From Candidatus Sulfomarinibacteraceae bacterium (GTDB lineage: Bacteria; Acidobacteriota; Thermoanaerobaculia; Thermoanaerobaculales; Sulfomarinibacteraceae), in contig CAWCLO010000010.1 of the NCBI GenBank assembly GCA_963796455.1, positions 288,001 through 352,000 of the forward strand: DNA of 64,000 nucleotides, read 5' to 3'. Position numbers and translations under genes: made by a program. Shown one piece after another: positions 1,511 to 60,627 of the stretch; positions within the stretch are counted from its first letter, which is position 1; each line of letters starts with the position of its first letter. The notes beneath the pieces were generated by a model, which saw only the letters and a program-made list of their open reading frames with translations, did not search any database and had not been told where the DNA came from.

Positions 1511-1617
1511 GATGCTGGATGCTCGATGCTGGATGCTGGATCTACCCACCCACCCCGTTCGAACCGGCAATTTGAGGTCGATGAGAGTTCTACATCCAGC
1601 ATCTGGTATCCAGTATC
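1511..1617. repeat. Inverted pair of heptamer tandem repeats: (GATGCTG)x4 ... (CAGYATC)x3
   Basis: gatgctg gatgctc gatgctg gatgctg at 1511-1538; catc cagcatc tggtatc cagtatc at 1593-1617. Confidence 0.85.
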
Positions 1618-1710
1618 ACTGCTGTCTAAAACAGATTGTCACATGAAGTTACCCACCTGACAACACGTGGTTTACGGGTTGGTTTTTGGCATATCCAGTT
1701 CGCGGTTGCC

Positions 1711-1844
1711 CCGTGCCCGTGTCCGCGTCCGCGTCCGTGCCCGAATTACAGCGGCAGCGACAGTGTCCAGCGTCAGCGACAGGCAACAGCGGTCAGCGAT
1801 CAGTGTTCAGTGTTCAGTGTTCAGTGTTCAGCGGCAGCGGTCAG
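1711..1844. repeat. Hexamer and heptamer tandem repeats upstream of the four-helix-bundle gene
   Basis: (CCGYGY)x5 at 1711-1740, then CAGCGR hexamers and cagcggt cagcgat (cagtgtt)x4 cagcgg cagcggt. Confidence 0.9.
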
Positions 1845-1892
1845 GTGCCGTGACGGCGTGGCCACCTCCGGGTCGTTCAAGAGAAAGGGGTA

Positions 1893-1961
1893 GCCGGTGG
1901 GCGGCCGATGTCAAGGACAGGCAGGGTGCAGGGCATCCTTGACATCGGCCGCCACACCGGC
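1893..1961. other. Long near-perfect hairpin (about 25-bp stem)
   Basis: gccggtgggcggccgatgtcaagga (1893-1917) pairs with tccttgacatcggccgccacaccggc (1936-1961) with one bulge. Confidence 0.85.
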
Positions 1962-1996
1962 TTGTGGGAACGGGCATGAACGACCCGGAGGTGACC

Positions 1997-2350
1997 ATGT
2001 CCAACGCCGCCACGAACACCAACCTCATTGCCCACTCGAAAGCCCTCGAAGCTGCAGGCATCGCGATCAAACTCGTGATGAGAGTTCCAGCTCCGCTGAA
2101 GTCCATAGCCGATCAGGTGATCCGGTCGGCAAGTTCAGTCCCTGCGAATCTGGCAGAAGGGCACGGCCGAGTCGGTAGAGACCGGTCGTACCATTGGAGA
2201 ATCGCTTACGCCTCGGCAAAAGAGGTCGATAGCCACTTCAAGCTCCTCGCCCACACCGGGGCGATCAACCGGTATGGAGCCAGTGACGCAATGAACGCCT
2301 TCGATCAGGTTCGTGCCATGACCTGGCGGCTGTTGAACCCGACGAATTGA
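1997..2350 (+). CDS. Four-helix-bundle protein (23S rRNA intervening-sequence protein / Avd-like family)
   Basis: Motif DQVIRSASSVPANLAEGHGR...WRIAYASAKEVDSH typical of the family; GGAGGT RBS before ATG 1997. Confidence 0.9.
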   Translation: MSNAATNTNLIAHSKALEAAGIAIKLVMRVPAPLKSIADQVIRSASSVPANLAEGHGRVGRDRSYHWRIAYASAKEVDSHFKLLAHTGAINRYGASDAMNAFDQVRAMTWRLLNPTN

Positions 2351-2352
2351 GT

Positions 2353-2405
2353 GCTGATAGCTGAACGCTGACCCTGGCAACCGTTCGCTGTCGCTGTCCG
2401 CCGCT
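2353..2405. repeat. Downstream repeat arm, reverse complement of the upstream CAGCG/CAGTG arrays
   Basis: gctgatagctgaacgctgacc...ttcgctgtcgctgtccgccgct; reverse complement gives cagcga cagcga ... ggtcagcgttcagctatcagc. Confidence 0.7.
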
Positions 2406-2474
2406 CCCCGTCCCTGTCCCCGGTCGCTACCTGAGACTTTGTCCTGGACAAGAGTGATCCGGCATCTCTATCCC

Positions 2475-3203
2475 TCAGCCGATCTGGGACTTACACAGCT
2501 CCCAGAGAAGTATGCCCGCTGAGACAGAGAGATTGAGCGACTCGACACCCTCAGCCATCGGAATCGAGATGAATTCGTCGACCTGTGATCGGGTCTTTGC
2601 CCGAAGCCCCGCCGCCTCGGCCCCGACAACGAGAATCCAACGCTCGGTTCCTTTGACCGAGTGCAGGGACGGGCCGTCGGCGTCGGCGCCAAAGGCCCAG
2701 TATCCATGGGGTCGCAGCGTCGCCAGGACGTCCGCGGCAACCCGTTCGCGGATCAGTGGGACCCTGCCGACAAGACCGGCGGCGGCCTTGAAGACAACCC
2801 CGCCGAGCGGTGGCGCCGAGGGGCCGGCAATGACCAGACCATCGATATCGAAGGCAGCGGCGGTGCGGATGACCGCCCCGAGGTTTTGCGGATCGTTGAT
2901 ATCGTCGACCATCAGCAACCGGCCTGTCTCGGTTTTCGGTCGGATCACGTCCTGCAGAGGGGTGAAACCGATCGGCGCCGTGCGGACCGCAAAACCGTTG
3001 TGGGCCGCACCATCAGCGACACCCTCGATCCTCGCGCGGGGGACCATGTCATAACGCAGGCCGCGACGGTGGGTCGCGGTGCTGATCGAACGCATGCGCT
3101 GGTCATGTCGGTCCTTTTGAATCCAGACAGCATCAACAGGTTGCTCGCTCTCGAGCACGGCAAGAACCGCGTGGAATCCTACGACCCAGAGTGTCTCAGC
3201 CAC
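2475..3203 (-). CDS. rlmB: 23S rRNA 2'-O-methyltransferase, TrmH/SpoU family
   Basis: GFHAV N-terminal substrate-binding domain; DPQNLGAVIRTA, VGAE..GL and IPM...VESLNLSVSAGI SPOUT motifs. Confidence 0.9.
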   Translation of the reverse strand: MAETLWVVGFHAVLAVLESEQPVDAVWIQKDRHDQRMRSISTATHRRGLRYDMVPRARIEGVADGAAHNGFAVRTAPIGFTPLQDVIRPKTETGRLLMVDDINDPQNLGAVIRTAAAFDIDGLVIAGPSAPPLGGVVFKAAAGLVGRVPLIRERVAADVLATLRPHGYWAFGADADGPSLHSVKGTERWILVVGAEAAGLRAKTRSQVDEFISIPMAEGVESLNLSVSAGILLWELCKSQIG

Positions 3204-3687
3204 TTTCGGCCCCCTTTTGAATCAGAACCACGGCCATGGCCGCAAGCCCCTCGTTGCGACCGGTGAATCCAAGTCCCTCGGTTGTGGTGGCCTTGACCGA
3301 TACCGCCGTCTTGTCGACGGCGAGCAACCCGGCCAGCGAAGCACGCATTTGCGGGCGGTGCGGGGCAATCCGCGGCCGTTCGCAGATCAGCGTGAGATCG
3401 CAGTTGCCGACAACGAAACCTTCACGATGCACCAGGTCCAGGGCCTTTCGGAGAATGACCGCCGAATCAACGCCGTACCATTTCGGATCGGTGTCCGGAA
3501 AATGATCGCCAAGATCACCAAGAGCCGCCGCGCCGAGCAGCGCATCGGAAACTGCGTGCAATGCGACGTCCGCATCCGAGTGACCCTCGAGGCCACGTTC
3601 GTTTTCGATCACGCACCCACACAGGGTGAGCGGTCCCGCGGCACCAAACCGGTGGACATCAAAGCCCTGGCCGATGCGAACAACCAT
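3196..3687 (-). CDS. ispF: 2-C-methyl-D-erythritol 2,4-cyclodiphosphate synthase
   Basis: RIGQGFDVHRF, GHSDADVALHAVSDALLGA, KATTTEGLGF; ATG overlaps the ispD stop. Confidence 0.97.
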   Translation of the reverse strand: MVVRIGQGFDVHRFGAAGPLTLCGCVIENERGLEGHSDADVALHAVSDALLGAAALGDLGDHFPDTDPKWYGVDSAVILRKALDLVHREGFVVGNCDLTLICERPRIAPHRPQMRASLAGLLAVDKTAVSVKATTTEGLGFTGRNEGLAAMAVVLIQKGAESG

Positions 3688-4361
3688 CACGAGAGTGTTC
3701 CCTTGAGGGCGCGCAAAAATTGGAGATCGGTTGTCCCTGTCAATTTCGGATTGGGAAACTGCGCGACGACACTTCGAACCGGGATGCCAACCAATTCCAG
3801 GAGCATCGATTCGTCGGTCCACACCTGGTCTTCTGCAACCTGCCCCCAGGCTCGCTCGAGCGCTTCGACTTTGAAAACCTGCGGTGTGAGAGCGAGGCGG
3901 AGATCGTCGCGAGAAACCGTGTCGACAATCATCCCGTCGTTGTCGATGTGCTTGACGGTATCGATAACCGGGGCTGAGAGAATCGCAGCCGGGGCGTCAC
4001 CGATGGCCCACACAACGCCTTTGACATCCTGCGGATCCACCAGCGGTCGTGCGGCGTCGTGAATTGCAACGACCTCAGCACCCAGGGCGGCCGCCGAGCG
4101 AACTCCATTTTGGACCGAGTCCTGCCGCCGGGGACCACCCGCCACAACCTGGCATTCGGAATAGTTCTCAGCCAATCGCTCGATCCAATTTTCTTTTCTT
4201 TCCGGCGGCACCACCACCACCAACGGCGCTTTTGGAAACGCCCGCCGGAGGGCCTCGAGTGAGGTTTCGAGCACGGTCCTCGACCCCAGCTTCTCTGCCA
4301 ACTTGTCGCCGCCGAATCGCGCCCCACGTCCCGCCGCAACAACTACCATCGCCAGATTCAC
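3687..4361 (-). CDS. ispD: 2-C-methyl-D-erythritol 4-phosphate cytidylyltransferase
   Basis: VAAGRGARFGGDK, GGPRRQDSV, IHDAARP, TPQVF; GTG start with AAGGAG RBS. Confidence 0.95.
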   Translation of the reverse strand: MNLAMVVVAAGRGARFGGDKLAEKLGSRTVLETSLEALRRAFPKAPLVVVVPPERKENWIERLAENYSECQVVAGGPRRQDSVQNGVRSAAALGAEVVAIHDAARPLVDPQDVKGVVWAIGDAPAAILSAPVIDTVKHIDNDGMIVDTVSRDDLRLALTPQVFKVEALERAWGQVAEDQVWTDESMLLELVGIPVRSVVAQFPNPKLTGTTDLQFLRALKGTLS

Positions 4362-4417
4362 AGTGACTCCTTCGTGTGGTCGATTCAGTTTACCGAGTGC
4401 GCCAAATAGGTTCTCGA

Positions 4418-5365
4418 TCAGGGGGTCTCTGCCAGACCGCGGATCAGCCCGGCCAGAAGGGACCAGCGTTCTTCGGCGGTGAGATCGCCATGGGCGCCAA
4501 TCACGAAACGACCCGTGGCGACCGCGGTCCCTTGACCAAGCGCTGGGTCCGAGTACTCGAAACCGGCACTGCCGACTGGTGGTTTGCCATCGCCGATCTC
4601 GCCCCACCGGGCCTGGTGGTTCTGTAATTGTTGCAGCGCCCCGGTGGCGGCGGCACCAGATCCGAGGTCACTGAAGAATACCTGCCCCTCGCGTTCCCCC
4701 GCCCGGTAGACTGCAATGACACCTCCCGGCAGAAAAGAGTGCCCCAGCAGATCCCTGGCGAGATAACGCGGACTCTGCACGACCAATCCATCGCGTGGCA
4801 AGACCGCCAGGATCGACGGCTGATCGGTCGTACCGGGAATCTTCCGACTGACCTCCGAAATCAGCCAATCCACAGCCTCGATCAAGGCAGTGTCTTCCTG
4901 ATCGGCCTCGACGTGGACAAAGACCCGCCCCTTCCAGAAGGCCCCTACGATATCTGAGCGATAACTCTCGGCGCCCCGCGCAGCCGTCACAGCCCCGGGC
5001 GGCCGCATCGATGAGAAGAGGCCGAAAGCACCGAGATCCGAGCCCATATCAAAAATGTCGAGCGTGACACCCGAGTCCGGATCATCTCGCATCTGGTAGC
5101 GGGCGTGGACCAATTCCTGAAATCCGTAACTTTCATAAAGGGGGGCACCGCCGTTGAGGTACTCCCACAGTGTCCCGGGTCGGTATCCGACCGGTTTTTC
5201 CGCCAGCTCCCAGCCATCGAGTTGCGCCGGATCCGGCAACAGATCGATGAGTTGGTCCGTCGCTTCTGAGGGCCCGGGGTCTGCTGCACAGGCGCACAAC
5301 ACCAGGATCACGAGAAGATGGAGGACTCGGCACGCCGGGAAAATGGATCGATTCATGTCGCGCAT
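4418..5365 (-). CDS. Putative lipoprotein, DUF6599-like
   Basis: Signal peptide with lipobox-like LCAC; LWEYLNGGAPLYESYGF and IFDMGS...AFGLFS motifs; GAGGAGG RBS. Confidence 0.7.
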   Translation of the reverse strand: MRDMNRSIFPACRVLHLLVILVLCACAADPGPSEATDQLIDLLPDPAQLDGWELAEKPVGYRPGTLWEYLNGGAPLYESYGFQELVHARYQMRDDPDSGVTLDIFDMGSDLGAFGLFSSMRPPGAVTAARGAESYRSDIVGAFWKGRVFVHVEADQEDTALIEAVDWLISEVSRKIPGTTDQPSILAVLPRDGLVVQSPRYLARDLLGHSFLPGGVIAVYRAGEREGQVFFSDLGSGAAATGALQQLQNHQARWGEIGDGKPPVGSAGFEYSDPALGQGTAVATGRFVIGAHGDLTAEERWSLLAGLIRGLAETP

Positions 5366-5416
5366 CACGCCTCCTCTCAGGTCGCAATTATCCACCAAGC
5401 ACGGACTGAGGATCGG

Positions 5417-5445
5417 AAAAAAACGCCCGCCGGATCGGCGGGCGT
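5417..5445 (-). terminator. Rho-independent terminator after frr
   Basis: acgcccgccg-atc-cggcgggcgt followed by a T run on the minus strand. Confidence 0.85.
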
Positions 5446-5470
5446 CTGAAATATCTCACCACCCGAAAGA

Positions 5471-6025
5471 TCAGATTTCCATGATCTCTTCCTCTTTTTT
5501 CTTGAGGATGGAGTTGACCTTTTCGACATAGGTGTTGGTCAGATTCTGGATCTTCTCCTGACCATCGTGCATCTGGTCCTCTGAAATCTCCTTGGCTTTT
5601 TCCATGGCCTTGATCTGATCGTTGCCGTCACGCCGGATCTGACGCAAGGTGTTGCGCGATCCTTCGGCGACATTCTGCGCGACCTTGGCCAGCTCTTTGC
5701 GACGGTCTTCAGTCAGCGCCGGGATGTTGAGACGCACCACCTTGCCGTCGCTGTTGGGCGTCAGACCGAGATTCGACTTGAGCAGGGCCTTTTCGATGTC
5801 GGCCAAAACCTTTGGTTCCCACGGCGCAATCGTTATGGTGGACGGATCGGGCAGCGAGAGCGATGCAACCTGATTGAGCGGTGTCTGCGATCCATAGTAG
5901 TCGACGGTGATGCCATCAACCACTGCAAGGGAAGCACGCCCGGTTCGAAGCTTGGCGAGCTCACCCTGAAAAGCCTCGACAGCATTGACCATCCGGCGTT
6001 CAATTTCTACAAAGATCTCGTTCAT
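5471..6025 (-). CDS. frr: Ribosome recycling factor
   Basis: LRTGRAS, VDYYGSQTPLNQVAS, IPALTEDRRKEL. Confidence 0.98.
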   Translation of the reverse strand: MNEIFVEIERRMVNAVEAFQGELAKLRTGRASLAVVDGITVDYYGSQTPLNQVASLSLPDPSTITIAPWEPKVLADIEKALLKSNLGLTPNSDGKVVRLNIPALTEDRRKELAKVAQNVAEGSRNTLRQIRRDGNDQIKAMEKAKEISEDQMHDGQEKIQNLTNTYVEKVNSILKKKEEEIMEI

Positions 6026-6756
6026 GCGACCTCCTCAGGGCCAACCCACGATCCAACGTCCTGGCCCATCACAACCTGCTTCATGATACCCGGGGTTCGA
6101 ATGTTGAATATCTGTATCGGTATCTCGTTCTCCATGCACAGCGAAATGGCCGCCGCGTCCATCACCCTCAAGCCCCGTTTCAGCACCTCTTGATAGCTGA
6201 GGCGGGGAATCAACTCGGCGGTCCGATCGGCCACCGGATCGCTTGTGTAGACACCATCGACCTTCGTGGCCTTCATCAGCACTTCGGCGTCGATTTCGTT
6301 GGCGCGCAGGGCGGCCGCCGAATCGGTGGTGAAAAAGGGGTTGCCGGTGCCTCCGGCAAAGAGGACGACTCTCCCTTTTTCCATATGGCGGATCGCCCTT
6401 CGTCTGATAAAGGGCTCTGCGACTTCGTTCATCTCGATCGCCGTTTGCACACGGGTCGGAATCTCGAGTTGTTCGATCGCCGACGAGAGGGCGAGGGCAT
6501 TGATCACCGTCGCCAACATCCCCATCGAGTCACCGGTGATGCGATCGATGCCCTGTTCGTGAGCAGAGACACCGCGGATGATGTTGCCGCCGCCGACCAC
6601 CACCGCAATCTGGGTGCCGAGGGCATGAACATCGGCGAGCTCGGCAGCGATCGTACGCACCACCGCAGGTTCGATCCCAAAAGACTGAGATCCCATCAAG
6701 GCCTCGCCCGAGAGCTTGACCATGATTCGGTGGTAGCGCGGCTGTGCCGGCTTCAT
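6022..6756 (-). CDS. pyrH: UMP kinase
   Basis: KLSGEAL, VVGGGNIIRG, GTGNPFFTTDSAAALRA. Confidence 0.98.
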   Translation of the reverse strand: MKPAQPRYHRIMVKLSGEALMGSQSFGIEPAVVRTIAAELADVHALGTQIAVVVGGGNIIRGVSAHEQGIDRITGDSMGMLATVINALALSSAIEQLEIPTRVQTAIEMNEVAEPFIRRRAIRHMEKGRVVLFAGGTGNPFFTTDSAAALRANEIDAEVLMKATKVDGVYTSDPVADRTAELIPRLSYQEVLKRGLRVMDAAAISLCMENEIPIQIFNIRTPGIMKQVVMGQDVGSWVGPEEVA

Positions 6757-6758
6757 AC

Positions 6759-7610
6759 CTATTCCTGGCTCCCCTCACCGAGTTTGTAACGAACAAACCG
6801 TACCACGGTCGCGTCAGCGCCCGAGCTATCCTTGAGGAACTGCTGCACCGACTTGTCGGGGTCCTTGGCAAAGGGCTGCTCGAGCAACACTTCCTGGACG
6901 AAGAACTTCTCCATCTTGCCCGCGACGATCTTTTTTGCGATCTCTTCCGGCTTGCCCGATTCGATCGCCTGGTTGAGCGCAATCTGACGCTCGTTGGCGA
7001 GCAGGTCCTCGGTCACCTGATCACGGTTGACAAAGCGGCTTTCGGTCGCGGCAATATGCAAGGCGACATCGTGCAGAGCTTCCTCCGTGGCGCCTCCGGA
7101 GCCCTCCACAACCACGCCGATCTTGCCGCCCATGTGGATGTAGGACGCGAGGGAATTGCCTTCGGCGGCCGCAACAACCGTCCCCTGTTTGGGAACGATG
7201 TTTTCGCCGATCACGGCAACCTTGAGCGAAACCGCCTCCTCGACGGTGTGCTCCGGATCGGCGGCAAAAGGCTGAGCCTTCAACTCATCCACGGAATGTG
7301 CATCGGTCGCGAGAATCTGTTCGACCAGTTCCTGACCGAAGCCCCGAAAATCCTCGAGCTTCGAAACCGGCTCGGTCTCACAGTTGAGCTCGAGGATCGC
7401 CATTTTCTTGTCGTCACCAACGACCGTGACCATGCCTTCGTTCGCAGCTCGACCCGCCTTCTTGGCGGCTGCTGCGAGGCCCTTTGTCCGCAGATAGGTG
7501 ATCGCCTCTTCGAGGTTTCCATCGGTCTCGACGAGCGCCTTTTTGCAGTCCATCATGCCTGCGCCGGTACGATCTCTGAGCTCCTTGACTGCCTGTGCTG
7601 TGATTGCCAT
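6759..7610 (-). CDS. tsf: Elongation factor Ts
   Basis: MAITAQAVKELRDRTGAGMMDCKKAL, ELNCETE, FVRYKLGE. Confidence 0.98.
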   Translation of the reverse strand: MAITAQAVKELRDRTGAGMMDCKKALVETDGNLEEAITYLRTKGLAAAAKKAGRAANEGMVTVVGDDKKMAILELNCETEPVSKLEDFRGFGQELVEQILATDAHSVDELKAQPFAADPEHTVEEAVSLKVAVIGENIVPKQGTVVAAAEGNSLASYIHMGGKIGVVVEGSGGATEEALHDVALHIAATESRFVNRDQVTEDLLANERQIALNQAIESGKPEEIAKKIVAGKMEKFFVQEVLLEQPFAKDPDKSVQQFLKDSSGADATVVRFVRYKLGEGSQE

Positions 7611-7708
7611 TCTTTCCACCTCTTCGGCCCGGTGACTGTCCCAGGCTCTAAAATATGAGGCCAGGTGCACTGTTGCTCCTGGCCCCTAAAAATCATCACT
7701 GGTGCGAC

Positions 7709-8695
7709 TCAGTCCTTGGCCGGGGCAACCTCTTTGGTTTCGTCGGTGACGTCAGCCTTTTCGGCAGGTGCCTCGACAACCTCTTCAGCTGCCTCTTCCG
7801 CCTTGGCGACCGGCGCCTCTTCGACAGCAGCCGGCTCTTCAGCCTCGACCGCAGTCACGGTCTCCACGGGAGCAGCCTCTTCAGCAGGCGCTGCTTCTTC
7901 CGTCGGCGCCTCGTCCACCGCAGGTGCGGCGTCTTCGGCAACTCCAGTCGCAGCCTCGTCGTCGGACGGTGCAGTCGCGATGTCCTTCTCTTCGTCGCCC
8001 ACGAAACGTTCATCCGCCAGGTTGAGGCCCTCGAGGATATTGTCGGCGATTCGTGACGTGAACAGGCGAATGGCCCGAATCGCGTCGTCGTTGCCGGGGA
8101 TCGGGAAGTCGACTTCTTCGGGGTCCGAGTTGGTATCGACCACAGCAACCACCGGGATTCCGAGACGATTGGCCTCCTTGATGGCAATGTGCTCGTGCAC
8201 CGTATCGACCACGAAGAGTGCATCAGGGAGATCTTCCATGTCCCTGATACCGCCAAAGGCGCGATCCATCTTGCGCCGCTGGCGCTCGAGCTGGATCCGC
8301 TCTTTCTTGGTCAGGTGGGACTCCTCGTTGCCGAGGACTCCTTCGATCTCTTTGAATCGCACGATCGATTTCCGGATTGTCCGGAAATTGGTCATGGTGC
8401 CGCCAAGCCAGCGGTGGTTCATATAGAACATCCCGCAGCGCTCGGCCTCCTCGCGGATCGCGTCCTGCGCCTGGCGCTTGGTGCCCACAAAGAGCACGTT
8501 GCGGCCGTTGGCGGCGAGATCGCGAATAAACTCGGCAGCATCTTCGAAGTGATGGAGTGTCTTCTGAAGATCGACAATGTGAATGCCATTGCGCTTGCCA
8601 AAGATGAACGGTTTCATCTTCGGGTTCCAGCGCTGCGTTTGATGCCCGAAGTGAACTCCGGCTTCGAGCAACTCCTTCATCTGGATGTTCGCCAC
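7709..8695 (-). CDS. rpsB: 30S ribosomal protein S2 with long acidic C-terminal tail
   Basis: [38 protein letters not shown]. Confidence 0.98.
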
Positions 8696-8706
8696 GAATC
8701 TCTCCC

Positions 8707-9099: not shown

Positions 9100-9116
9100 G
9101 AACTCCCCCTCTCACA

Positions 9117-9545: not shown

Positions 9546-9595
9546 GATCGATTCCTTACGTAGTTCGCACGACCCTGCGGGCACAGGGGAACAAG

Positions 9596-9704: not shown

Positions 9705-10268
9705 TCAGACTCCCGATGTCTCTTCTTGGTGGGCCCGTCGTCTTGGCTGGACATCCGAATCAACGCTCGCCGGAAGGGCCCTCGGGCCGCGAGCCGGCAG
9801 CTCCTCGAGGTTGCCCGGACCAAACCACAAGGACAAGCTTCGTGAGGTCCCCTGAACCGTCAGGATCCGCAAATGAAGTTCGTTCGAAAGCCAGCGCCGA
9901 AGATCGACCACCACGATGCCTTGTCCTTTGAAAACTTTGACACGCGGGTTGTCGAGGGCGAGAAACCCGAGTTCCACGGCCTTTCTGGGAACCGGAAAAC
10001 CGCCGACGGCCCGCACTCTGCGCATTCGAAACCCGAGGTGGCGATGGCGCATCCGAATCTCGGCGAGATCGAGGCTGACTCGGGCGGGTATGCCTTTCCA
10101 CCTGACGGTGAGCTCGGCGGCGAGCGCGTCCCCTTTGCCGGTCAAACGGAGATCGCGAAGCCGCTCGCTGGCGGCGAGGGCGTCGTTGAGATGTCGCTCC
10201 ACCCGGGCCAGGTCGAGTACCACGTGGAGTCCGTCCCAACGCGCGAGAGGAGTCGCAAGATCGTTCAC
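9705..10268 (-). CDS. Hypothetical protein
   Basis: 187-aa ORF filling the gap; TATACT lies 6 nt upstream of the GTG; no family recognised. Confidence 0.65.
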   Translation of the reverse strand: MNDLATPLARWDGLHVVLDLARVERHLNDALAASERLRDLRLTGKGDALAAELTVRWKGIPARVSLDLAEIRMRHRHLGFRMRRVRAVGGFPVPRKAVELGFLALDNPRVKVFKGQGIVVVDLRRWLSNELHLRILTVQGTSRSLSLWFGPGNLEELPARGPRALPASVDSDVQPRRRAHQEETSGV

Positions 10269-10297: not shown

Positions 10298-10330
10298 GAA
10301 TTCGGAGTTCGGAATTCGGAGTTCGGAATT
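10298..10330. repeat. Heptamer tandem repeat (TTCGGAR)x4
   Basis: ttcggag ttcggaa ttcggag ttcggaa at 10301-10328. Confidence 0.9.
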
Positions 10331-10356: not shown

Positions 10357-10453
10357 CCGCAGATGACGCAGATATGCGCAGATGATGAACCGGCGATTGA
10401 ACGGTCTTGCCGAAATCAATGTTGGTATCTGCGTTTATCTGCGTGATCTGCGG
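10357..10453. repeat. Inverted pair of 9-10 nt period repeats (CGCAGAT)x3 ... (ATCTGCG)x3
   Basis: ccgcagatgacgcagatatgcgcagat at 10357-10383 and atctgcgtttatctgcgtgatctgcgg at 10427-10453. Confidence 0.9.
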
Positions 10454-12038: not shown

Positions 12039-12069
12039 CCTCCCACCACGACGCGAAGAGCCGTTTCAG

Positions 12070-12176
12070 TTCGGAGTTCGGAGTTCGGAGTTCTGAATGT
12101 CGTTCAATCTCCAAGCTCTACAAAAAATCGAGAAGTTGGATTGAAATTCGGAATTCCGAATTCCGAATTCCGAATT
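12070..12176. repeat. Inverted pair of heptamer tandem repeats (TTCGGAG)x3 ... (TTCCGAA)x3
   Basis: ttcggag x3 + ttctgaa at 12070-12097; ttccgaa x3 at 12154-12174; inner ttcaatc...gattgaa inverted repeat. Confidence 0.9.
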
Positions 12177-22199: not shown

Positions 22200-22298
22200 T
22201 GGCGGAAGCGCAAGGGAATCGAACCCTCCGACCGACCCTATTGAGACCGGCCCAACGGATTTGAAGTCCGCGGAAGCCACCAGGCCCCATGCGCTTCC
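22200..22298 (-). tRNA. selC: tRNA-Sec(TCA)
   Basis: Reverse complement GGAAGCGCATGGGGCCTGGTGGCTTCCGCGGACTTCAAATCCG..., 8-bp acceptor stem, long variable arm, GTTCGATTC, GCCA end. Confidence 0.95.
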
Positions 22299-49676: not shown

Positions 49677-49785
49677 GAGATTTGAGTTTTGAGAATTGAG
49701 TTTTTGAGCTCCCGACGAAGGACCGGCAGCATCCTCCACGCGCGGCTCGAACAACTCAAAAAATGATCCCCAAACCTCAAAACTC
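49677..49785. repeat. Inverted pair of heptamer repeats (GAGWWTT)n ... (AAAACTC)n
   Basis: gagattt gagtttt gagaatt gagttttt gag at 49677-49708; aactcaaaaaa...cccaaacctcaaaactc at 49753-49785. Confidence 0.75.
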
Positions 49786-50571: not shown

Positions 50572-50701
50572 AACCACAAAGACACCAGGGACACCAGATC
50601 ACCACCACGACGAGGCGTCTGCGATTTGATCGAGGTCGATCATCGGCACCATCGATCTCAATTCAAAGAGAATCTTGGTGACCTCGGCATCGTGGTGGTG
50701 A
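50572..50701. repeat. Inverted element with roughly 9-nt periodic ACAC/ACCAC arms between fabD and fabG
   Basis: aaccacaaagacaccagggacaccagatcaccaccacga (50572-50610) and tcttggtgacctcggcatcgtggtggtga (50673-50701); the 12-bp tcaccaccacga inversion is perfect. Confidence 0.7.
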
Positions 50702-52680: not shown

Positions 52681-52744
52681 GTCTCACAAACTCGTTTCCG
52701 CGGCCGTCATTTTGCCGCCGACAGGAGACCGGGGATCATCAATC

Positions 52745-52930: not shown

Positions 52931-52953
52931 TGTCAGACTCCATAATTCTTCGA

Positions 52954-53481: not shown

Positions 53482-53589
53482 GCACACCTCTCCCCGCAGG
53501 GATTGCGAAGTATAGCACCTGTCTCGTTTTGACTCCAACTCATCCGTGGTGTTGACGAACCGACTCCCGATCACCACCGCGGAGAAGGG

Positions 53590-54441
53590 TCAAACTGCGG
53601 CGCGGGCAGAGTCCGTTGAGATGCCGGCCACCGCAATCGCGGCGCCGAGCGCGGTCAGCGAGATGACCGTCCACAGGTTCTCGCCGACAACGGGGGTGAA
53701 CCTCAGAGCGAGCAGAATCAAGAGACCGACAAAGACCTCGAGACTGATCGGCATCGGGTGATGAAACCACCGTTCGAGCACCGCGCCACCGAGCCAGCAC
53801 CCGAGCACCGTGAGGCCCACCGCCTTGGCGGCAAAGAAAATGATCATCAGACTCGCAACCAGTGGAACCCCGAGGGCCGGACCAAAACCGAGCGCCGCCA
53901 CCACCGAGGCCACAACCGTCAACCCGAGCAAAAGACCGAGAGCCAGGATTTTGAATCCAAAGGTCGGAACAGCCCACGCTCCGAATCGAATTCTCACCGG
54001 AAACAAAAAGGCCAGCCCGGTGGTCACCAACAACCACCCGCCGGCCGTCAAGAGGCGCATCGAAAAGTCGACCTGCCGAGGATCGCCTGAAACCGGGGAA
54101 GCGCCGCCAAGACTCGCGAGCGATGAGTAGCCGAGTACCCGCCCACCCACGGTCGCGTCTCTGGAAACCTCCACGTGACCTAAAACAGCCACTACATGTC
54201 CATCGACCTCGACATCCCGAGAGACGATGACGTCGCCGCCGATCGCGACCGCGTCGCCCTCGATCCGAGTACCGGGTTCGAGATAAAGGTCGGCGCCGAA
54301 AACGACCACGTCGCCTTCAACCGGATGACCGATGTGAAGATCCTTGAGGACAGCCGCCTGACCTGCTCCAGCATTATTGACGAAGGAAATGCCGAGGAGG
54401 AAAAGGAGCGCTGAGATTCGGATCAGTGATCGTTGCGCCAC
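53590..54441 (-). CDS. Membrane protein with bactofilin-like beta-helical repeats
   Basis: VEGDVVVFG / IEGDAVAIGG / VDGHVVAVLG repeats followed by several TM helices. Confidence 0.75.
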   Translation of the reverse strand: MAQRSLIRISALLFLLGISFVNNAGAGQAAVLKDLHIGHPVEGDVVVFGADLYLEPGTRIEGDAVAIGGDVIVSRDVEVDGHVVAVLGHVEVSRDATVGGRVLGYSSLASLGGASPVSGDPRQVDFSMRLLTAGGWLLVTTGLAFLFPVRIRFGAWAVPTFGFKILALGLLLGLTVVASVVAALGFGPALGVPLVASLMIIFFAAKAVGLTVLGCWLGGAVLERWFHHPMPISLEVFVGLLILLALRFTPVVGENLWTVISLTALGAAIAVAGISTDSARAAV

Positions 54442-54962
54442 GGTGACGCCTTCCGCCAGCGCAACGCAGCCACCGCAACTGCGGCCAAACCGATCAAACC
54501 CAGCAAGCCGGCAGCAACAAGAACGGCTGGATCGAGCGTAGCGGCCGCACCACGGGCGCCGGTCGCAACCGCTGTTGTCCAATCGGCTGCGCTGGCCAAG
54601 AATGCCGTCCATCCCTGCGCCGACCACCGTGGCAGGAAGGACACGATGCCGCCACCCGGGACGCCACCGACCATGATGGCGCCGAGCAATGCCACGAAAA
54701 GTGAAGCGGCGACAGGTAAAAAGGCGACGATCCGGCGGCGCACACGAACCGGCCGAAGAGCGGCCATGACGTTCTTTTCGACAGATGGGTCCGCCGGCGG
54801 GATGGCTCTTTTGAACAGAAAGCCTATGGCCTTTTCGCTTGCGGCAACTTCGCGGCACTCTGGGCACGCGTCAAGATGCCGCCGCGCAGCCTCTTCGAGG
54901 CGCTCGACTGAGCCACCATATTCGGTGAGCATCTCTTGAATTGCCTGGCAATGAGTTGACAC
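54423..54962 (-). CDS. Putative zinc-binding anti-sigma factor (zf-HC2) with TM helices
   Basis: HLDACPEC motif; directly downstream of an ECF sigma. Confidence 0.82.
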   Translation of the reverse strand: MSTHCQAIQEMLTEYGGSVERLEEAARRHLDACPECREVAASEKAIGFLFKRAIPPADPSVEKNVMAALRPVRVRRRIVAFLPVAASLFVALLGAIMVGGVPGGGIVSFLPRWSAQGWTAFLASAADWTTAVATGARGAAATLDPAVLVAAGLLGLIGLAAVAVAALRWRKASPWRNDH

Positions 54963-54990
54963 TGTGCCTCCCGTCGCATCTTATCAGCCG

Positions 54991-55572
54991 CTATAAGAAT
55001 TCGGCCAATGCTTTACGTAATACGGAGTGTGCTCGAAAAAGTTTGTTTTTTACGGTACCGAGCGGCATTTCTTTGAATTCGGCGATCTCCTGGTAGCTCA
55101 GACCCGCAAAATGGCGGAGCAGCACCAATTCCCGGTATTCCGGCCGGAGCCCCTCGATCACCTCACGCAGTTCCGATGAAAGTGCGGTGTTTTCGAGATG
55201 GCCGAGCGGGTCCTTTTCGGCATCGGGCAACACCATTTCAACTTCATCGCCTTCGGCATCTTTCCGGTAAATCGACACCGTCTTGAGCTTGCGTCGACGG
55301 AGTTGATCGATGCCGAGGTTGTGGGCAATGCGAAACAACCAGGTCGAAAAACGGTATTGCGGGTTGAATCGTTCCAGTGCCGACCACGCCCGAATAAAGG
55401 CCTCCTGCGACAACTCCCTGGCCAATTCGATATCGCCCACGAGTTGGCTGAGGAATGCGGTCAGCCGACGCTGATACCGGCGTACAAGGATGCCGAAAGC
55501 GCCCTCATCGCCATCCAACGCCAACTCCACCAGCCGTTCGTCGGGTAGTTTTGTTTCTGCTTGATCAGCCAC
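54991..55572 (-). CDS. ECF RNA polymerase sigma factor (SigW/RpoE-like)
   Basis: GDEGAFGILVRRYQ, QEAFIRAW, FSTWLFRIA.N, LSYQEIAE...PLGTVKNKLFRA. Confidence 0.94.
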   Translation of the reverse strand: MADQAETKLPDERLVELALDGDEGAFGILVRRYQRRLTAFLSQLVGDIELARELSQEAFIRAWSALERFNPQYRFSTWLFRIAHNLGIDQLRRRKLKTVSIYRKDAEGDEVEMVLPDAEKDPLGHLENTALSSELREVIEGLRPEYRELVLLRHFAGLSYQEIAEFKEMPLGTVKNKLFRAHSVLRKALAEFL

Positions 55573-55584
55573 AACGCAGCATCA

Positions 55585-55611
55585 TACTCCTTCACCTCAG
55601 CATTGGTTTCA
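55585..55611 (-). promoter_or_regulatory. Possible autoregulatory ECF promoter
   Basis: TGAAAC-17 nt-AGTA just upstream of the sigma gene; resembles the SigW-type TGAAAC-N16/17-CGTA consensus. Confidence 0.4.
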
Positions 55612-55666
55612 CCACTACAAGGAGTCTCAAGGTGATTTTTGATACACTCCGGGCGGAGGTGCGTGC

Positions 55667-57427
55667 GTGCGAAACTCTTTCTTGCTCTGGATCCTTGCCG
55701 CCATCATTGTCGTTCCGGGTTTTTCCCAGACCGCAGATGAAGAAAATACCCTCGAGCGGAGGAGCGACCCGATTGGAGGTCTCACCTTTGTCGATGAAGT
55801 CGAGGTCTCGATCGCCAATGTCGTCGTCTATGTGACCGACAAGAAGGGCCTCGCCGTCACCGATCTGACGGCCGACGATTTCATCGTCCGCCAGGACGGT
55901 GACCTCAAGCAGATCAGCAACTTCAAACTTTATACCGACGACATCATCCGCGAGCAGTACGTGGACGAAACACCCGGTCTGCTGGAGGGACCCCCGCAAC
56001 CGACTCCGGTTCCCGATGCCGACGACGCGGCAGGACCGATTCCGGTTCACTTCGTCATCTACATCGACAACCAGAATCTGACACCGCTCGACCGCAATCG
56101 GGTCCTTTCCCAAACGCGCGAATTCATTCGTTCGAGCCTCCACCCACCGGCCAAGATGATGGTCGTCGCATACCAGAGGTCCTTCGAAGTACTGCAGCCG
56201 TTTACCGACAACCCGACTGAGGTGCTCGACGCCATGCGGAGCGTACGGCGCTACACCGGCGGTCGCAGCGAGCGCATCACCGCCGAGCGGGAAATCCTCG
56301 ACGACATCAAGCGTCTCGACGACAACAATCGATCCGGGGGGGGCGGTCAGGGCCACAGCCAGGGGCTTCAGGACATCTACCGGAAAATCGACCTGTTTGC
56401 CGAAGAGACATCAAACGATCTCCAATTCACGCTTGACAGTTTGCGTCAGATCATCACCAGCCTTTCCGGGCTCCCCGGAAAGAAGGGTGTTGTCTACGTC
56501 TCCAACGGGCTGCCGATGATTCCGGGAATGGCGCTGTACTACGAGCTCAGCCGAATGGCCAACAACTCGACCGCCCTGACCCAGATGTTCGAGCATGACA
56601 AGACGCGCTTCTATCAGAATCTCGCCAGCATCGCCAACTCCCAGGATGTCACCCTCTACATGGTTGATGCTTCCGGTTTGAGTCTGGGCAACACCAGCTC
56701 GGCGGAGTTCTCCAAGGCGCAGGATGGCCTTTCGGCCTCCGTTGGACAACACAACCTCACCGACAGCCTCCAGTTCCTTGCCGACGAGACAGGCGGGATC
56801 GCCATCATCAACACCAACGATGTGTCGCTGAAGCTCGAGCTCGTCAAGCAGGACATGTTCACCTACTATTCGATCGGCTATCCTCTGCAGGTCTCCGGTG
56901 GTGACAAGGTCCACAAGGTCTCAATCAAGCTGCAAGACAACCCCGAATTCAAGGACTACACTCTTCGGTACCGGTCTCGCTTTGTCGAGAAGTCCCTCGA
57001 AACCAGGGTCCAGGACACCGTGGTCTCGAGCCTGGTTTTTGAGGTTGAGGACAATCCGATGGGAATCGAGTTCACCTCGGGAACCCCCTCCGCCGCGAGT
57101 GAGAAAAGATGGCTGGTCCCGGCCCAGATCTCCTTTCCACTGAAAAATGTCGCCCTGTTGCCGGTCGGTGAGGACTATGTGGCGCGGGTGGTCATGTTCG
57201 TCGCGGTGCGTGATTCCGACGGCAAACAGTCCGACCTCGTCCGTCAGGAGCACGAGGTGAAGGTGCCGGCCTCGGTCTACGAGCAGGCCCAGAACCAGAT
57301 GTGGACGCTCGACACCCAACTTCTCATGGAATCCGGTCGATACAAAATGTCGGTGGCGATCCTCGACCCGATCACCCGCCAGGATTCCTACAAAACAATT
57401 TCGAAGGCGGTCTTTCCCGACAAATAG
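55667..57427 (+). CDS. Acidobacterial-type VWA domain protein
   Basis: Signal peptide; V.VTDKKG..VTDLT.DDF.V.QDG, PGKKGVVYVSNG, LADETGG, YYSIGY. Confidence 0.85.
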   Translation: MRNSFLLWILAAIIVVPGFSQTADEENTLERRSDPIGGLTFVDEVEVSIANVVVYVTDKKGLAVTDLTADDFIVRQDGDLKQISNFKLYTDDIIREQYVDETPGLLEGPPQPTPVPDADDAAGPIPVHFVIYIDNQNLTPLDRNRVLSQTREFIRSSLHPPAKMMVVAYQRSFEVLQPFTDNPTEVLDAMRSVRRYTGGRSERITAEREILDDIKRLDDNNRSGGGGQGHSQGLQDIYRKIDLFAEETSNDLQFTLDSLRQIITSLSGLPGKKGVVYVSNGLPMIPGMALYYELSRMANNSTALTQMFEHDKTRFYQNLASIANSQDVTLYMVDASGLSLGNTSSAEFSKAQDGLSASVGQHNLTDSLQFLADETGGIAIINTNDVSLKLELVKQDMFTYYSIGYPLQVSGGDKVHKVSIKLQDNPEFKDYTLRYRSRFVEKSLETRVQDTVVSSLVFEVEDNPMGIEFTSGTPSAASEKRWLVPAQISFPLKNVALLPVGEDYVARVVMFVAVRDSDGKQSDLVRQEHEVKVPASVYEQAQNQMWTLDTQLLMESGRYKMSVAILDPITRQDSYKTISKAVFPDK

Positions 57428-57468
57428 CCAGGTCGGCGGAGCGCGACACCCCTTTGTGCCTGTCGCGC

Positions 57469-58434
57469 TCAGTTCAATTTGGATTCCAGCGGCTCCAGGA
57501 TCAACCGACGGTTGCGATAGTCAAAGAACGATCGGAAGCGGCTGAGCAACCCGTTGCCCACAATTCCGTTGAGATCGGGGATATTTCGAACCGCCGGCAC
57601 CCGGAAAGGCTCGATAAAACTCGTCTCGACCGAATTGACCTGCACCAACCCCATCTCCAGTCGATGGATCGAGGCCACATTCACCTCGATCGCGCCCGAG
57701 ACTCCAAAACTGCCGCTCCGGGAGAGATTTCCCGAAGGCTTGAGGCGGCGCTTGGAACCGGTGACCAGGGTCAGGTAGCGAGCCGAGCCGGAGTCGATCA
57801 TCAACCGGACATCCACCGGTTTCTTGCCCTCCTCGATCGTCACGATCGCGTTGATGATCGGCCGCTGGTCGACGATCTCGATCGGCAGGACCACCCCATC
57901 GCCCCGATACGAGAATTCCCCGGGTTCATGCAGCACCACCACCCGTCGGAGCGGGTCGATCTCGACGACAAAACGATCAAAGAGCTCGGAACCGAGAAAG
58001 CCATCGATGTGGCGGCCAAAGACATCGAAAAGACGGGCGCCGATATCGTGCGTTGCCAGCGAAACATCGAGCACCGGAACACCCTGGCTGGAGATCGCGA
58101 CCTCTTCGGTGATCAAGACCTGGGTTGCTCCCGATCCGAGACCACGGGCGAGACCCGACTCGCGGACCTCGAGTTCAAGCGCCGTTGCCAGCAGGGGGTC
58201 GGTGATCGCGCTCATGGTCGCGCCGGAGTCGACGATGAAATTCAAGGTCGCGGACCCTGCAACTGTTGCCGGCACCAGAATGACTCCGGCAAAGGGCTCA
58301 AAATTCAGTTCAATAACACACCTAGCGGCATCTTCGTGAGGATCTTCCTCCGACCCGAAGCCGGACGAAAACGGGAGAAGTGCAAGGACGACGATCATCC
58401 CCGCCCGCAACAGGTTTTCCGGTGAGGATCTCAC
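57469..58434 (-). CDS. Secreted retropepsin-like aspartyl protease (two domains)
   Basis: FIVDSGA...DGFLG and LMIDSGS...GIVGNG motifs. Confidence 0.85.
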   Translation of the reverse strand: MRSSPENLLRAGMIVVLALLPFSSGFGSEEDPHEDAARCVIELNFEPFAGVILVPATVAGSATLNFIVDSGATMSAITDPLLATALELEVRESGLARGLGSGATQVLITEEVAISSQGVPVLDVSLATHDIGARLFDVFGRHIDGFLGSELFDRFVVEIDPLRRVVVLHEPGEFSYRGDGVVLPIEIVDQRPIINAIVTIEEGKKPVDVRLMIDSGSARYLTLVTGSKRRLKPSGNLSRSGSFGVSGAIEVNVASIHRLEMGLVQVNSVETSFIEPFRVPAVRNIPDLNGIVGNGLLSRFRSFFDYRNRRLILEPLESKLN

Positions 58435-58473
58435 AATGACCGAGTGTAGCGGACTTTTCTCCAGGGCCGAAAG

Positions 58474-58977
58474 TTATTCGAGTTCGATCAGAAGCTCGCC
58501 ACCATCGACTGTCGCTCCTTCGATGACATGGACCTCAACGACGCGCCCCGCCTGCTCGGCCGCCAGTTCGTTCTCCATCTTCATGGCTTCGAGCACCACC
58601 AGCGGTTGCCCGGGCACCACCTCATCACCCGGAGCGACCTTGACCGCCACGACTTTTCCGGGAATCGGCGCCGTCAAACGGCTGGGTCCGCCGTCCCGAG
58701 CTCCCATCACATCTTCAGAGGCTGCGCCCGGTGTGAGTACCGAAAAATCGAATTCCCGCTCTCCGACTCCGACACACCAGCTTCCTTTCGATCCCTGCTG
58801 GTAGGTGATCTGGAAGCTTCGCCCATCAGAAGGAAAACGCATGGATGCGATCGCGCCGTCAAGACGCACAAGCTCGACCGGAACGCTGCGACCATCGAAC
58901 TCGAGCAAAAAGGCCCCGCCCTGCCGCTCAACCTTGATCTCTCGATTCTCTTCGCCACCGCGGACGACCCATTTCAT
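58474..58977 (-). CDS. Biotin carboxyl carrier protein
   Basis: APIPGKVV, LEAMKMENE biotinylation motif. Confidence 0.95.
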   Translation of the reverse strand: MKWVVRGGEENREIKVERQGGAFLLEFDGRSVPVELVRLDGAIASMRFPSDGRSFQITYQQGSKGSWCVGVGEREFDFSVLTPGAASEDVMGARDGGPSRLTAPIPGKVVAVKVAPGDEVVPGQPLVVLEAMKMENELAAEQAGRVVEVHVIEGATVDGGELLIELE

Positions 58978-60488
58978 CGCGGAAACCTCCCATGCAGGAC
59001 CCTCGCCCCTTCGATCCACCAGTTGCTGTCCGTGCCGTATTCAAAGAGGTCGTCGGGCAGGCCGTCGGTCGACAGGGTGGCGAGACACGCCGCCGCCAGG
59101 ATCGCAGCCTCCTCGACCTCGGGGTCCTGTCCTCCAATCCCGTCGAGACCACCGGACTCCAGGAGTTCGTCAAGAAACTTGGTATGGAAATCGAACTCGT
59201 GGAAAGCCTTCATGCCCACCAGCGCCCGGAACAGCGTCAAGGTGGTGGCAACGCCGCGAATTTGAAACTCCTCGAGGGCGCGATCCAAACGCCTGACAGC
59301 CGCCTCGCGATCGGGAGCCCAGATCACGAGCTTGGCGAGCATGGGGTCATAGTCCAGGGGCACCACACTCTCGGTCACGACGCCCGAGTCAAGACGCACA
59401 CCCGGGCCAGATGGTTGGAGAAAGAGGCTGATTCGACCCGGCGATGGCGCAAAATTTCGCAACGGGTCCTCGGCGTAAACGCGACACTCGATGGCATGTC
59501 CACGAGGAACCAGATCCTCTTGAATGAGGGAGAGAGATTCGCCGAGTGCAATGTTGATCTGTTCTTGGACGAGGTCGACTCCGAAAACCTCCTCGGTCAC
59601 CGGGTGTTCGACCTGCAGGCGGGTGTTCATCTCGAGAAAGAAGAAGTTTCCATCGGGATCGAGCAGAAACTCCACGGTGCCGACCGAGTGATAACCCGAG
59701 GCCCTGACCAGTGCCAATGCCGCCTCGCCGAGGGATCGGCGCAGGTCTTCTTCAACAACCGGTGAAGGACACTCCTCCACCACCTTCTGGTGCCGTCTCT
59801 GAATCGAGCACTCTCGTTCACCGACATAGGCTGCATTACCTTTGCGATCGGCGACGATCTGCACCTCGATATGGCGGGCTCGATCCACCAGCCGTTCAAC
59901 AAAGACACGGGAATCACCGAAATAAGCCAGGCCTTCGGAGCACGCTCGTTCGTATGAGGACTCGAGGTCGGCGCGGTCGTTGACTGCGCGCATGCCTTTG
60001 CCTCCGCCACCTGCCACCGCTTTCAGCAACACCGGCAGCCCGTGTTCGTCGACAAATGCATGGAGTTCCTGGATGTCCTCGATGGGTTTCATGAGGCCGG
60101 GAATCAACGGCACGTCGCATTCGACCGCGAGGTTTCGGGAGGCGGTCTTGGAACCCATCAGCCGCATCGCATCAGGGGGCGGACCGACCCAGGTGACGCC
60201 AGCCGCCTCGACCCGTTCCGCGAAGTCGGCGTTTTCGGCCAGAAAACCATAACCCGGGTGGAGCAGATCCGCGCCCGAGATCCTACAGGTTTCGAGCAAA
60301 CGATCCATATCGAGATAACTCTCAGCCGCCGGCGCCGGGCCGATGGGAAAGCTCTGGTCGGCCATCAAAACATGGGGGGCGAGCCGGTCGACCTCCGAGT
60401 AGACCGACACCGTTTCGATCCCCATCTCACGGCAGCCTCGAATGATCCGGACAGCGATCTCACCTCGATTGGCGACCAGGAGTTTCAT
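58974..60488 (-). CDS. accC: Biotin carboxylase subunit of acyl-CoA carboxylase
   Basis: KLLVANRGEIAVR, HPGYGFLAEN, GGGGKGMR, RECSIQRRHQK, EMNTRLQVEHPVTE. Confidence 0.93.
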   Translation of the reverse strand: MKLLVANRGEIAVRIIRGCREMGIETVSVYSEVDRLAPHVLMADQSFPIGPAPAAESYLDMDRLLETCRISGADLLHPGYGFLAENADFAERVEAAGVTWVGPPPDAMRLMGSKTASRNLAVECDVPLIPGLMKPIEDIQELHAFVDEHGLPVLLKAVAGGGGKGMRAVNDRADLESSYERACSEGLAYFGDSRVFVERLVDRARHIEVQIVADRKGNAAYVGERECSIQRRHQKVVEECPSPVVEEDLRRSLGEAALALVRASGYHSVGTVEFLLDPDGNFFFLEMNTRLQVEHPVTEEVFGVDLVQEQINIALGESLSLIQEDLVPRGHAIECRVYAEDPLRNFAPSPGRISLFLQPSGPGVRLDSGVVTESVVPLDYDPMLAKLVIWAPDREAAVRRLDRALEEFQIRGVATTLTLFRALVGMKAFHEFDFHTKFLDELLESGGLDGIGGQDPEVEEAAILAAACLATLSTDGLPDDLFEYGTDSNWWIEGARVLHGRFPR

Positions 60489-60517
60489 GCAGGTCCTCCA
60501 CGGCGGTGCGCCGCAAA

Positions 60518-60627
60518 AATTTCCAGATTTCGGATTTCAAGTTTCGGAATCGTCGACAGTCGAGGGGTGTCGGTTGTCTGATCGGATGGAGTGGTCTGCA
60601 TTCCTGATTCCTAATTCCTAATTCCTA
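60518..60627. repeat. Heptamer repeat arms (RGATTTC)n ... (ATTCCTA)x4 between the carboxylase genes
   Basis: agatttc ggatttc aagtttc ggaatc at 60525-60551; attcctg attccta attccta attccta at 60600-60627, where the last cta is the pccB stop codon. Confidence 0.8.

Follow-up and report, generated by a model that had tools for sequence, protein, structure and literature searches.

The stretch of DNA analyzed here, referred to below as the window, comprises 64,000 nucleotides of contig CAWCLO010000010.1 (positions 288,001 to 352,000) from the assembly of a Candidatus Sulfomarinibacteraceae bacterium, which amounts to 5.02 Mb in 10 contigs and is 90.5% complete; coordinates given with the prefix G000 are those of this genome. 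Within the 9.4 kb of intergenic DNA of the window, a first-pass annotation had noted eight sites that carry tandem arrays of short units, mostly as two inverted arms, one of which encloses a gene for a four-helix-bundle protein. All eight arrays are found where it placed them, and the genes on either side, namely rfaE2/waaC, fabD/fabG and pccB/accC, had been named correctly. What did not hold is the view of the eight sites as one family. Namely, they are of two kinds: one site is an element with the ends of an IS4-type insertion sequence (IS), while the other seven consist of gene-less arms and are most likely the husks of repeat-armed gene cassettes.

The gene-bearing site does exist and does enclose a gene, but it is larger than had been assumed, extending from 1617 to 2456, with terminal inverted repeats and a target duplication. 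Nor are the first two annotated sites separate: the element sits in the inner arm of a gene-less inverted pair of the GCTGGAT class (1511..1616; arms at 1511-1541 and approximately 1593-1616, a unique spacer of about 50 nt with a CCCACCC tract, folding z -4.9). This inner arm, the target of the element, originally started directly behind the rlmB stop codon (2475-2477). Reading along the + strand, the left copy of a 9-bp target duplication (1608..1616, 7/9 identical to the right copy) is followed by the left 18-bp terminal inverted repeat of IS4-family type (1617..1634), a left subterminal segment common to 75 element ends in the genome (1635..1709), a hexamer array of the CCCGTG class (1710..1743), and then by an inner cassette. 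The latter is made up of a left arm with a mixed 6/7-nt array of CAGCG type (1749..1844), a conserved leader hairpin whose outer stem lies over the GGAGG preceding the start codon (1863..1993), the four-helix-bundle gene itself (1997..2350, + strand, 117 aa, TIGR02436/PF05635), and a right arm with the reverse-complement CGCTG array (2353..2429). The right 18-bp terminal inverted repeat (2439..2456) and the right copy of the duplication (2457..2465) complete the arrangement. The element thus measures 840 bp and contains one open reading frame (ORF), antisense to the flanking rlmB-tRNA-tuf operon, and no transposase. According to Tandem Repeats Finder (TRF), the CAGCG arm occurs in the window only at 1787-1844, and no sequence is common to the element and the seven gene-less sites.

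The family of the window ORF occupies 94 loci in the genome, 61 of them near full length. In their flanks we found two 18-nt end motifs that are mutual inverted repeats, and 57 pairs of these motifs span 341-887 bp. When target-duplication lengths from 2 to 16 were tested, only 9 stood out: the duplication is perfect in 20 of the 57 pairs, as opposed to 1.6 in shuffled pairings, and has at most one mismatch in 33, as opposed to 6.9 (maximum 12). Insertion sites outside arrays behave similarly, with 8/14 also matching at 8-9 of 9 positions. A scan for the end motifs returned 117 stretches, about a dozen of which are elements of 1.3-1.6 kb with an ORF of approximately 400 aa; at least five of these (L034, L039, L050, L067, L083) have perfect 9-bp duplications, and the two proteins tested are IS4 transposases (DUF4372+DDE_Tnp_1, NF033592, 240-267 bits at a cut-off of 115). 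Transposase-encoding elements with the same ends occur in other phyla. What is more, the ends begin with CA and have T at position 9, which together with the 9-bp duplication fits the IS4Sa row of Table 1 in PMC2266710. The 1617-2456 element is, in other words, an IS4-derived passenger cassette on a classical carrier, and, given the duplications and the filled and empty alleles described below, its movement is likely the work of an IS4 transposase supplied in trans. The one DDE_Tnp_1 match in the genome, at C7:291107, was considered as the cognate enzyme and set aside, since its ends differ and tblastn does not match it to the DUF4372 type. The sole autonomous IS4 copy in the genus (L128, G017:C434) lies between heptamer arrays of other classes and has no matching duplication. 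Inside one element copy (G000 C3:12441) there is a transposase-like ORF, which we take to be IS481-like.

The carrier has a marked preference for one class of array, an IS4 end adjoining 48/107 GCTGGAT arrays vs 4/256 other heptamer arrays. At the rlmB 3' site, which we compared over 21 loci, the four-helix-bundle gene is present only in this genome. The G008 allele is empty and has one copy of the 9-mer that the filled allele of G005 has twice. In G005 and G034 the site holds IS4-ended elements with other cargo; in the rlmB 3' junctions of G005, G034 and G032 (L135, L136, L138) other palindromic cargo replaces the gene. No joint across an insertion site was found in the short DNA contigs of four sequencing runs. 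The seven gene-less sites had been regarded as empty derivatives of such a gene-bearing copy, but they share no sequence with the one in the window. The true derivatives of the latter are deletion forms with IS4 ends at other places in the genome. At nine G000 loci, 262 nt have been lost between two short matches containing GGCCG, a recurrent deletion that takes out the leader and half of the ORF (window equivalent 1901-2164); its joint was found again in contigs of sequencing runs X1 and X2. At G000 C10:353281, C4:218060 and C1:372271, the ends enclose the inner cassette in inverted orientation, or two right-type ends are present, which suggests recombination between the arms.

The passenger protein is what the first-pass annotation took it for, i.e. 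a relative of the proteins encoded in intervening sequences (IVSs) of 23S rRNA and of Avd: it matches TIGR02436/PF05635 above the family cut-off, and TIGR02436 has 73 matches in the genome. Its predicted structure has four helices (predicted local distance difference test score 93.7) and best matches 2GSC and 2RLD, with the structure of XCC0516 as the best match; Avd is reached at a template-modeling (TM) score of 0.76-0.79 and 6-9% identity. The protein is net basic (14 K/R vs 8 D/E). Upstream, 15 of 40 predicted pairs of the leader hairpin show two-sided change among 22 sequences. The two arms of its inner stem both contain TTGACA, there are compensatory changes, and the ribosome-binding site is covered; some G006 and G017 copies have a different insert within the outer stem.

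Is this ORF maintained, or does it decay with its carrier? We judged selection from allele classes and from per-copy rates against the majority sequence, using 59 gap-free ORFs with a mean pairwise difference of 10.4% and leaving out frameshifted and deleted copies. Variants present in at least two copies comprise 136 synonymous and 59 non-synonymous changes and 0 stops, compared with an expectation of 54 synonymous changes and 6 stops, while private variants are near neutral (37/108 synonymous vs 29.6 expected, P=0.06). Per copy, the proportion of synonymous differences (pS) is 0.174 and that of non-synonymous differences (pN) 0.031, giving a pN/pS of 0.18. In the 44 broken or partial pieces the synonymous pool is the same (pS 0.165), and new non-synonymous changes have been added. 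The passenger ORF is under purifying selection, and this pattern means that selection acted on the lineages from which the copies descend; it may serve either the element or the host. Linkage in the ORF copies fades over distances of 30-60 nt, and the four-gamete test is failed by 60-86% of site pairs; for this reason the copies look mosaic, with recurrent mutation as an alternative cause. Target-duplication mismatch, taken as a clock, showed no correlation with ORF age.

The same cassette is found in congeners, where we sampled 37 copies from nine of them. IS4 ends occur among these only in G006 (12 of 14 copies), and copies from G014, G008, G016 and G005 (L221-L240, L254, L255, L010) lie in a second, unrelated end type (GG...CC). 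This second type inserts in AACGTT arrays with variable 1-2-nt linkers, and its 8-bp duplication is perfect in 7/15 cases and within one mismatch in 13/15, figures that stand without a control and concern a target whose core is conserved. It is present in 12 of 25 genomes and AACGTT arrays in 17 of 25, both being absent from the genome studied here. The sampled copies of G003, G004, G013, G017 and G018 have no IS4 end, and the flanks shown for G003 and G004 have no second end. Copies group mostly by genome. As the inner cassette (CAGCG arms, covarying leader hairpin and ORF) occurs in two end types and also without detected ends, it is older than both wrappers. No transposase for the second end type was found among 120 metagenome stretches (80 with flanks); its family is thus unassigned, with ISL3-like as a guess from the GG ends and the 8-bp duplication. 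Identical copies of the cassette at two places in one assembly (L254/L255 in G016, where the flanks are identical too, and L252/L253 in G006) reflect either duplication or an assembly artefact.

Besides the pair at 1511..1616, the gene-less sites are as follows. At 10298..10330 (+ strand) there is one TTCGGA(A/G) arm with a CCC-rich tract behind it; it points away from the start of a gene on the minus strand that ends at 10268. Next to it lies an inverted pair of the CGCAGAT class, with a unit of about 9 nt (10357..10453, z -9.9); arms of this class also enclose a GxxExxY gene, at G000 C1:748395. The rfaE2-waaC gap holds a TTCGGAG/ATTCCGA pair (12068..12176, z -10.0), the region behind the fabG stop a pair of the TTTTGAG class (49677..49785, z -3.4), and the fabD-fabG gap a degenerate pair of the CACCAAG/CACAGAG class, which is of GxxExxY type (50572..50701, z -3.0). 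Finally, two convergent heptamer arms with unlike units occupy the pccB-accC gap (60518..60627, z +0.4), the TAGGAAT arm beginning at the pccB stop codon. Relative to shuffles, five of the six paired sites therefore fold, at z -3.0 to -10.0, so that the inverted-arm description stands for these; it fails at pccB-accC, where the arms carry different units and consequently do not pair. Elsewhere in the window, Rfam detects no rRNA and only tRNAs, among them a tRNA-Sec gene at 22204-22298 and a four-tRNA cluster at 1013-1372, upstream of tuf.

Such arrays are far too frequent to be chance products of base composition. A strict detector finds 6 period-7 arrays in the window intergenic DNA, against a mean of 0.005 (maximum 1) in 200 dinucleotide shuffles, and across all intergenic DNA of the genome it finds 220, 453, 361 and 32 arrays of periods 6, 7, 8 and 9, respectively, with 0-3 in three shuffles. 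For period 7, where the shuffles give 0-2, this bears out the excess over shuffled intergenic DNA that the first-pass annotation had proposed to look for; with TRF, the period-7 count is 559 vs 7 in a Markov-5 control. The annotated periods of 7 or about 9 nt were only partly apt: period 7 is strongly enriched, but periods 6, 8 and 13 are equally so and 9 is the weakest. The two sites with units of about 9 nt are degenerate and escape the strict detector, yet they fold, with z -9.9 and -3.0. Genome-wide, 454/481 period-7 arrays are intergenic, the modal copy number of heptamer arrays by TRF is 4 units, and the recurring unit classes are few. The main heptamer units contain GG or no G run, and a G-quadruplex reading was rejected for want of GGG tracts. 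CCC(A/G)CCC tracts follow 65/252 TTCGGA/TAGGAAT/TTTTGAG arrays, compared with an 11% background, and are much more regular in some congeners.

The arrays are also strictly oriented. Genome-wide gene context was taken from dicodon-model gene calls (3977 genes), which missed rfaE2 in the window, so that the counts by context are approximate. Of 116 arrays adjoining a stop codon, 112 point away from the gene, as do 35 of 40 that precede a start, and inverted heptamer neighbors face inward in 43/44. The spacers of the 43 inward pairs, mostly 30-50 nt long, form 43 singleton clusters. Since all are unrelated, these hairpins are not self-copying MITEs (miniature inverted-repeat transposable elements), and a MITE reading of the seven gene-less sites was dropped, as the copies are not alike end to end. 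In nine of the 43 inward pairs the two units differ. The four main classes comprise 363 arrays, and for the majority of these no partner lies within 250 nt.

The evidence linking gene-less arms to genes comes from the rest of the genome and from its relatives. Namely, seven other cassette genes, four for four-helix-bundle and three for GxxExxY proteins, each lie between inverted arms of a different unit class, and these arms mostly start at or near the upstream stop codon. In an automatic test, inverted tandem arms were recognized at 6/7 of these divergent cassette genes vs 2/506 other small genes, the association that the first-pass annotation had suggested checking; the seventh has TAGGAAT arms that are seen by eye. 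The unit classes around the cassette genes recur as gene-less arrays. Of 17 loci at the ygeY-OTC junction, 10 hold a GxxExxY gene, and G012 retains there both arms and the downstream tail, with a spacer of approximately 30 nt that matches the first codons of the gene. Here gene deletion can be seen directly to have produced a husk whose short spacer is unique. Related arms at the DUF364-MocA junction enclose a four-helix-bundle gene in this genome and, by tblastn, a GxxExxY gene in 4/9 congener loci, and in the orthologous-site comparison at nhaA the neighbor gene is present in 2/10 genomes. In a further locus (L381:1895-2323), the start of the GxxExxY ORF overlaps the upstream stop codon and the ORF reads in frame through the left arm. 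The association and the deletion derivative bear out the idea that cassettes with a gene and derivatives without one form a system that conserves period and inversion and not sequence.

We think it reasonably probable that arm-bracketed small-gene cassettes land in operon gaps and lose their genes, that the seven sites are their husks, and that the eighth is such a cassette within IS4 ends. In this scheme, four-helix-bundle or GxxExxY genes sit between inward-pointing tandem arrays of 6-9-nt units; the cassettes would land in operon gaps, likely beside stop codons; and internal deletion would remove the gene, likely leaving what is seen at the seven sites, each of which, we infer, once held a gene. 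The left-over arms may be kept regular by slippage and arm-to-arm conversion. The basic, Avd-fold protein would be a putative binder of the arrays, probably as DNA, and might favor the spread of the encoding copy or genome. At the eighth site the cassette is enclosed by IS4 ends, with the 9-bp duplication as the mark of its likely transport in trans. One can tentatively go further, although we regard this as rather less probable, and see in these cassettes an unrecognized, foldback-like selfish class of prokaryotes that reads periodic DNA, whose husks explain the bacterial excess of 6-9-nt repeats, those of 7 nt in particular, and whose protein steers unrelated transposases to arrays. Were the Avd-fold protein such an adaptor, this would account for the capture of the same cassette by two IS end types, for the selection on the ORF and for the insertion of both types in arrays.

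That said, a number of observations weigh against the husk interpretation. A single deletion derivative came to light, and this belongs to the GxxExxY (8/9-nt) class; and when the 43 heptamer spacers were compared with cassette proteins by blastx, no convincing match appeared, the five of 5-11 residues being taken as noise. A strict arm test recognizes 16/61 near-full mobile copies, whose arms are of mixed period, and a standard left end plus right end accompanies 28/61 (any two ends, 32). A cognate IS4 transposase of DUF4372 type was not found in the 90.5%-complete assembly, where PF14706 has no match, and it is present in 1/25 genus genomes. Moreover, elements with other cargo occupy GCTGGAT arrays at the rlmB junction, so that IS4 moves do not require the gene in cis. 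The presence/absence comparison across relatives, also anticipated by the first-pass annotation, is in part unfavorable as well. Arrays persist at rfaE2-waaC in 17/19 evaluable relatives (5/24 not being evaluable and the row of this genome not included) and at pccB-accC in 18/19 genomes (3/22 loci dropped), and such persistence at housekeeping junctions is not explained by passive decay. The unit, number and pairing of arrays nonetheless vary between genomes at the orthologous window junctions, at which no congener has a cassette gene. The fabD-fabG gap, for instance, measures 13-61 nt in 12/19 genomes and 161-216 nt, with a hairpin, in 7/19; in short alleles (L158, L160, L163, L165), GGAGAC-type hexamer repeats stand directly before the fabG start and could double as ribosome-binding sites. 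Because arrays stay at orthologous junctions while their content varies, the sites are persistent in place and fluid in content, and neither pure decay nor fixed function accounts for them alone.

Could the arrays instead be a regulatory network of the host, acting on mRNA? They would then be RNase III-cut stems or oligomer-bound periodic sites that tune processing or translation, or else husks domesticated later, and we regard this as possible but doubtful. The strict polarity to stop and start codons, the persistence just described, the preference for about four units, the folding of 5/6 paired window sites at z <= -3 and the Avd-like fold all fit such a role, as does the cutting of IVS stems by RNase III (PMC4990558). 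However, selection of the arms as stems on the host mRNA would be expected to place the G·U pairs that arise from transition mismatches on the sense strand; in 26 co-directional hairpins G·U falls on the sense strand 22 times and on the antisense strand 37 times (p=0.07), with the sense duplex being the stronger in 9/26. The arms at pccB-accC are unpaired, unlike units are found in one inward pair in about five, and most arrays stand alone. The mobile gene, too, is mostly antisense or convergent: at 27 co-directional junctions it is in sense 8 and antisense 19 times, and it is enriched at convergent junctions (24/61 vs 305/1833, p=4e-5). Finally, the polarity rule holds at convergent and divergent junctions as well, identically on both strands; it is therefore symmetric at the DNA level, which is what an inserted cassette would show at its ends. 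The stem on operon mRNA that the first-pass annotation had envisaged is not supported by these results, and an RNA role for the arrays appears, from such sequence comparisons, disfavored.

Ordinary slippage microsatellites unconnected to cassette genes would readily have 43 unrelated spacers and units that change between species at one site, but the few recurring classes, the polarity, the contrast of 6/7 with 2/506 and the G012 derivative make this improbable. Least probable of all is an origin as stacked target duplications and excision footprints of ISs: the IS4 target AT-N5-AT does equal one unit plus AT, and the 8-bp target of the second end matches AACGTT arrays, which occur in 12/12 genomes with that end vs 5/13 without it (kin not being independent), but a 9-bp duplication would yield period 9, the filled/empty pair shows insertion into an already existing array, and GCTGGAT-class matches number 317, 282 and 101 in G015, G031 and G004, which have 0 IS4 ends, so that GCTGGAT arrays are targets and not footprints, and this origin is largely refuted for IS4.

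Returning to the cassette interpretation, how much of it is new? Eukaryotic foldback elements have long inverted tandem-repeat arms around a variable middle, and gene-less derivatives; the likeness to the arm cassettes is architectural only, no transposase being known for the latter. REP/RAYT systems (repetitive extragenic palindromes with their associated tyrosine transposase) consist of short conserved palindromes flanking a Y1 transposase gene, whereas the arms here are tandem arrays. In the open-access literature, we found no paper linking four-helix-bundle or GxxExxY genes to repeat arms. Mobile insertion cassettes, transporter ISs and MITEs are defined in PMC3129680, and the IS4 subgroups are tabulated in PMC2266710. 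Like IS4-ended mobile insertion cassettes and MITEs, the element at 1617-2456 has CA...T ends, a 9-bp duplication, a passenger gene in place of a transposase, and deletion derivatives. Unlike them, its passenger is a repeat-armed PF05635 gene under purifying selection, it prefers one heptamer-array class, and its cargo is also found in a second end type; the likeness is limited to this site. The carrier itself, then, is of a known kind.

The seven gene-less sites, for their part, belong to a type of repeat that has been published but not explained. Intergenic heptamers, GGGAATC in Xanthomonas and GGGGA(T/C)T in Nostoc, were described by Rehm et al. 2015 (PMC4692102). The Xanthomonas repeats form 70-75 convergent inverted pairs, have the G-rich strand in sense behind stops and in antisense before starts, prefer four units, are mostly kept between related species, and were interpreted as G-quadruplexes. 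The arrays described here resemble them in being intergenic, in their polarity to stop and start, in their convergent pairs and in the mode of four units, but differ in having many classes and units without GGG tracts. Given these published pairs and the classical IS4-derived carrier, the first-pass suggestion of a wholly undescribed system goes too far. The supplement of that paper lists a repeat overlapping the XCC0516 start, and its main text mentions neither xcc0516 nor a link to a gene family. The TAACTGA repeats of Beggiatoaceae (MacGregor 2015, PMC4679880) likewise come in 2-6 intergenic copies with an orientation bias, housekeeping operons included, but these are direct repeats before starts, read as translational control sites, and form no inverted-arm cassette in that account. 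Intervening sequences of 23S rRNA that carry an S23p ORF (PMC4990558) share with the window cassette a PF05635 gene enclosed in a long predicted stem; the copies here, by contrast, are intergenic and outside rRNA, in operon gaps and often antisense. Finally, homology between Avd and PF05635 is discussed in PMC10053308, and Avd of diversity-generating retroelements (PDB 4DWL, 8UB7) has the four-helix fold of the window protein at the TM scores given above, but no reverse transcriptase gene lies within the 840-bp element.

Heptamer repeats are over-represented in bacteria without an accepted origin, as noted in the introduction of PMC4692102, and our findings suggest an origin for these 7-base repeats that can be tested. 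PF05635 proteins have known structures and no function, and this genome links their genes to heptamer repeats. In particular, some 60 copies of the IS4-ended version occur naturally, with ends and target both defined. Ordinary laboratory assays can now address the binding partner of the protein and its possible role in its own spread.

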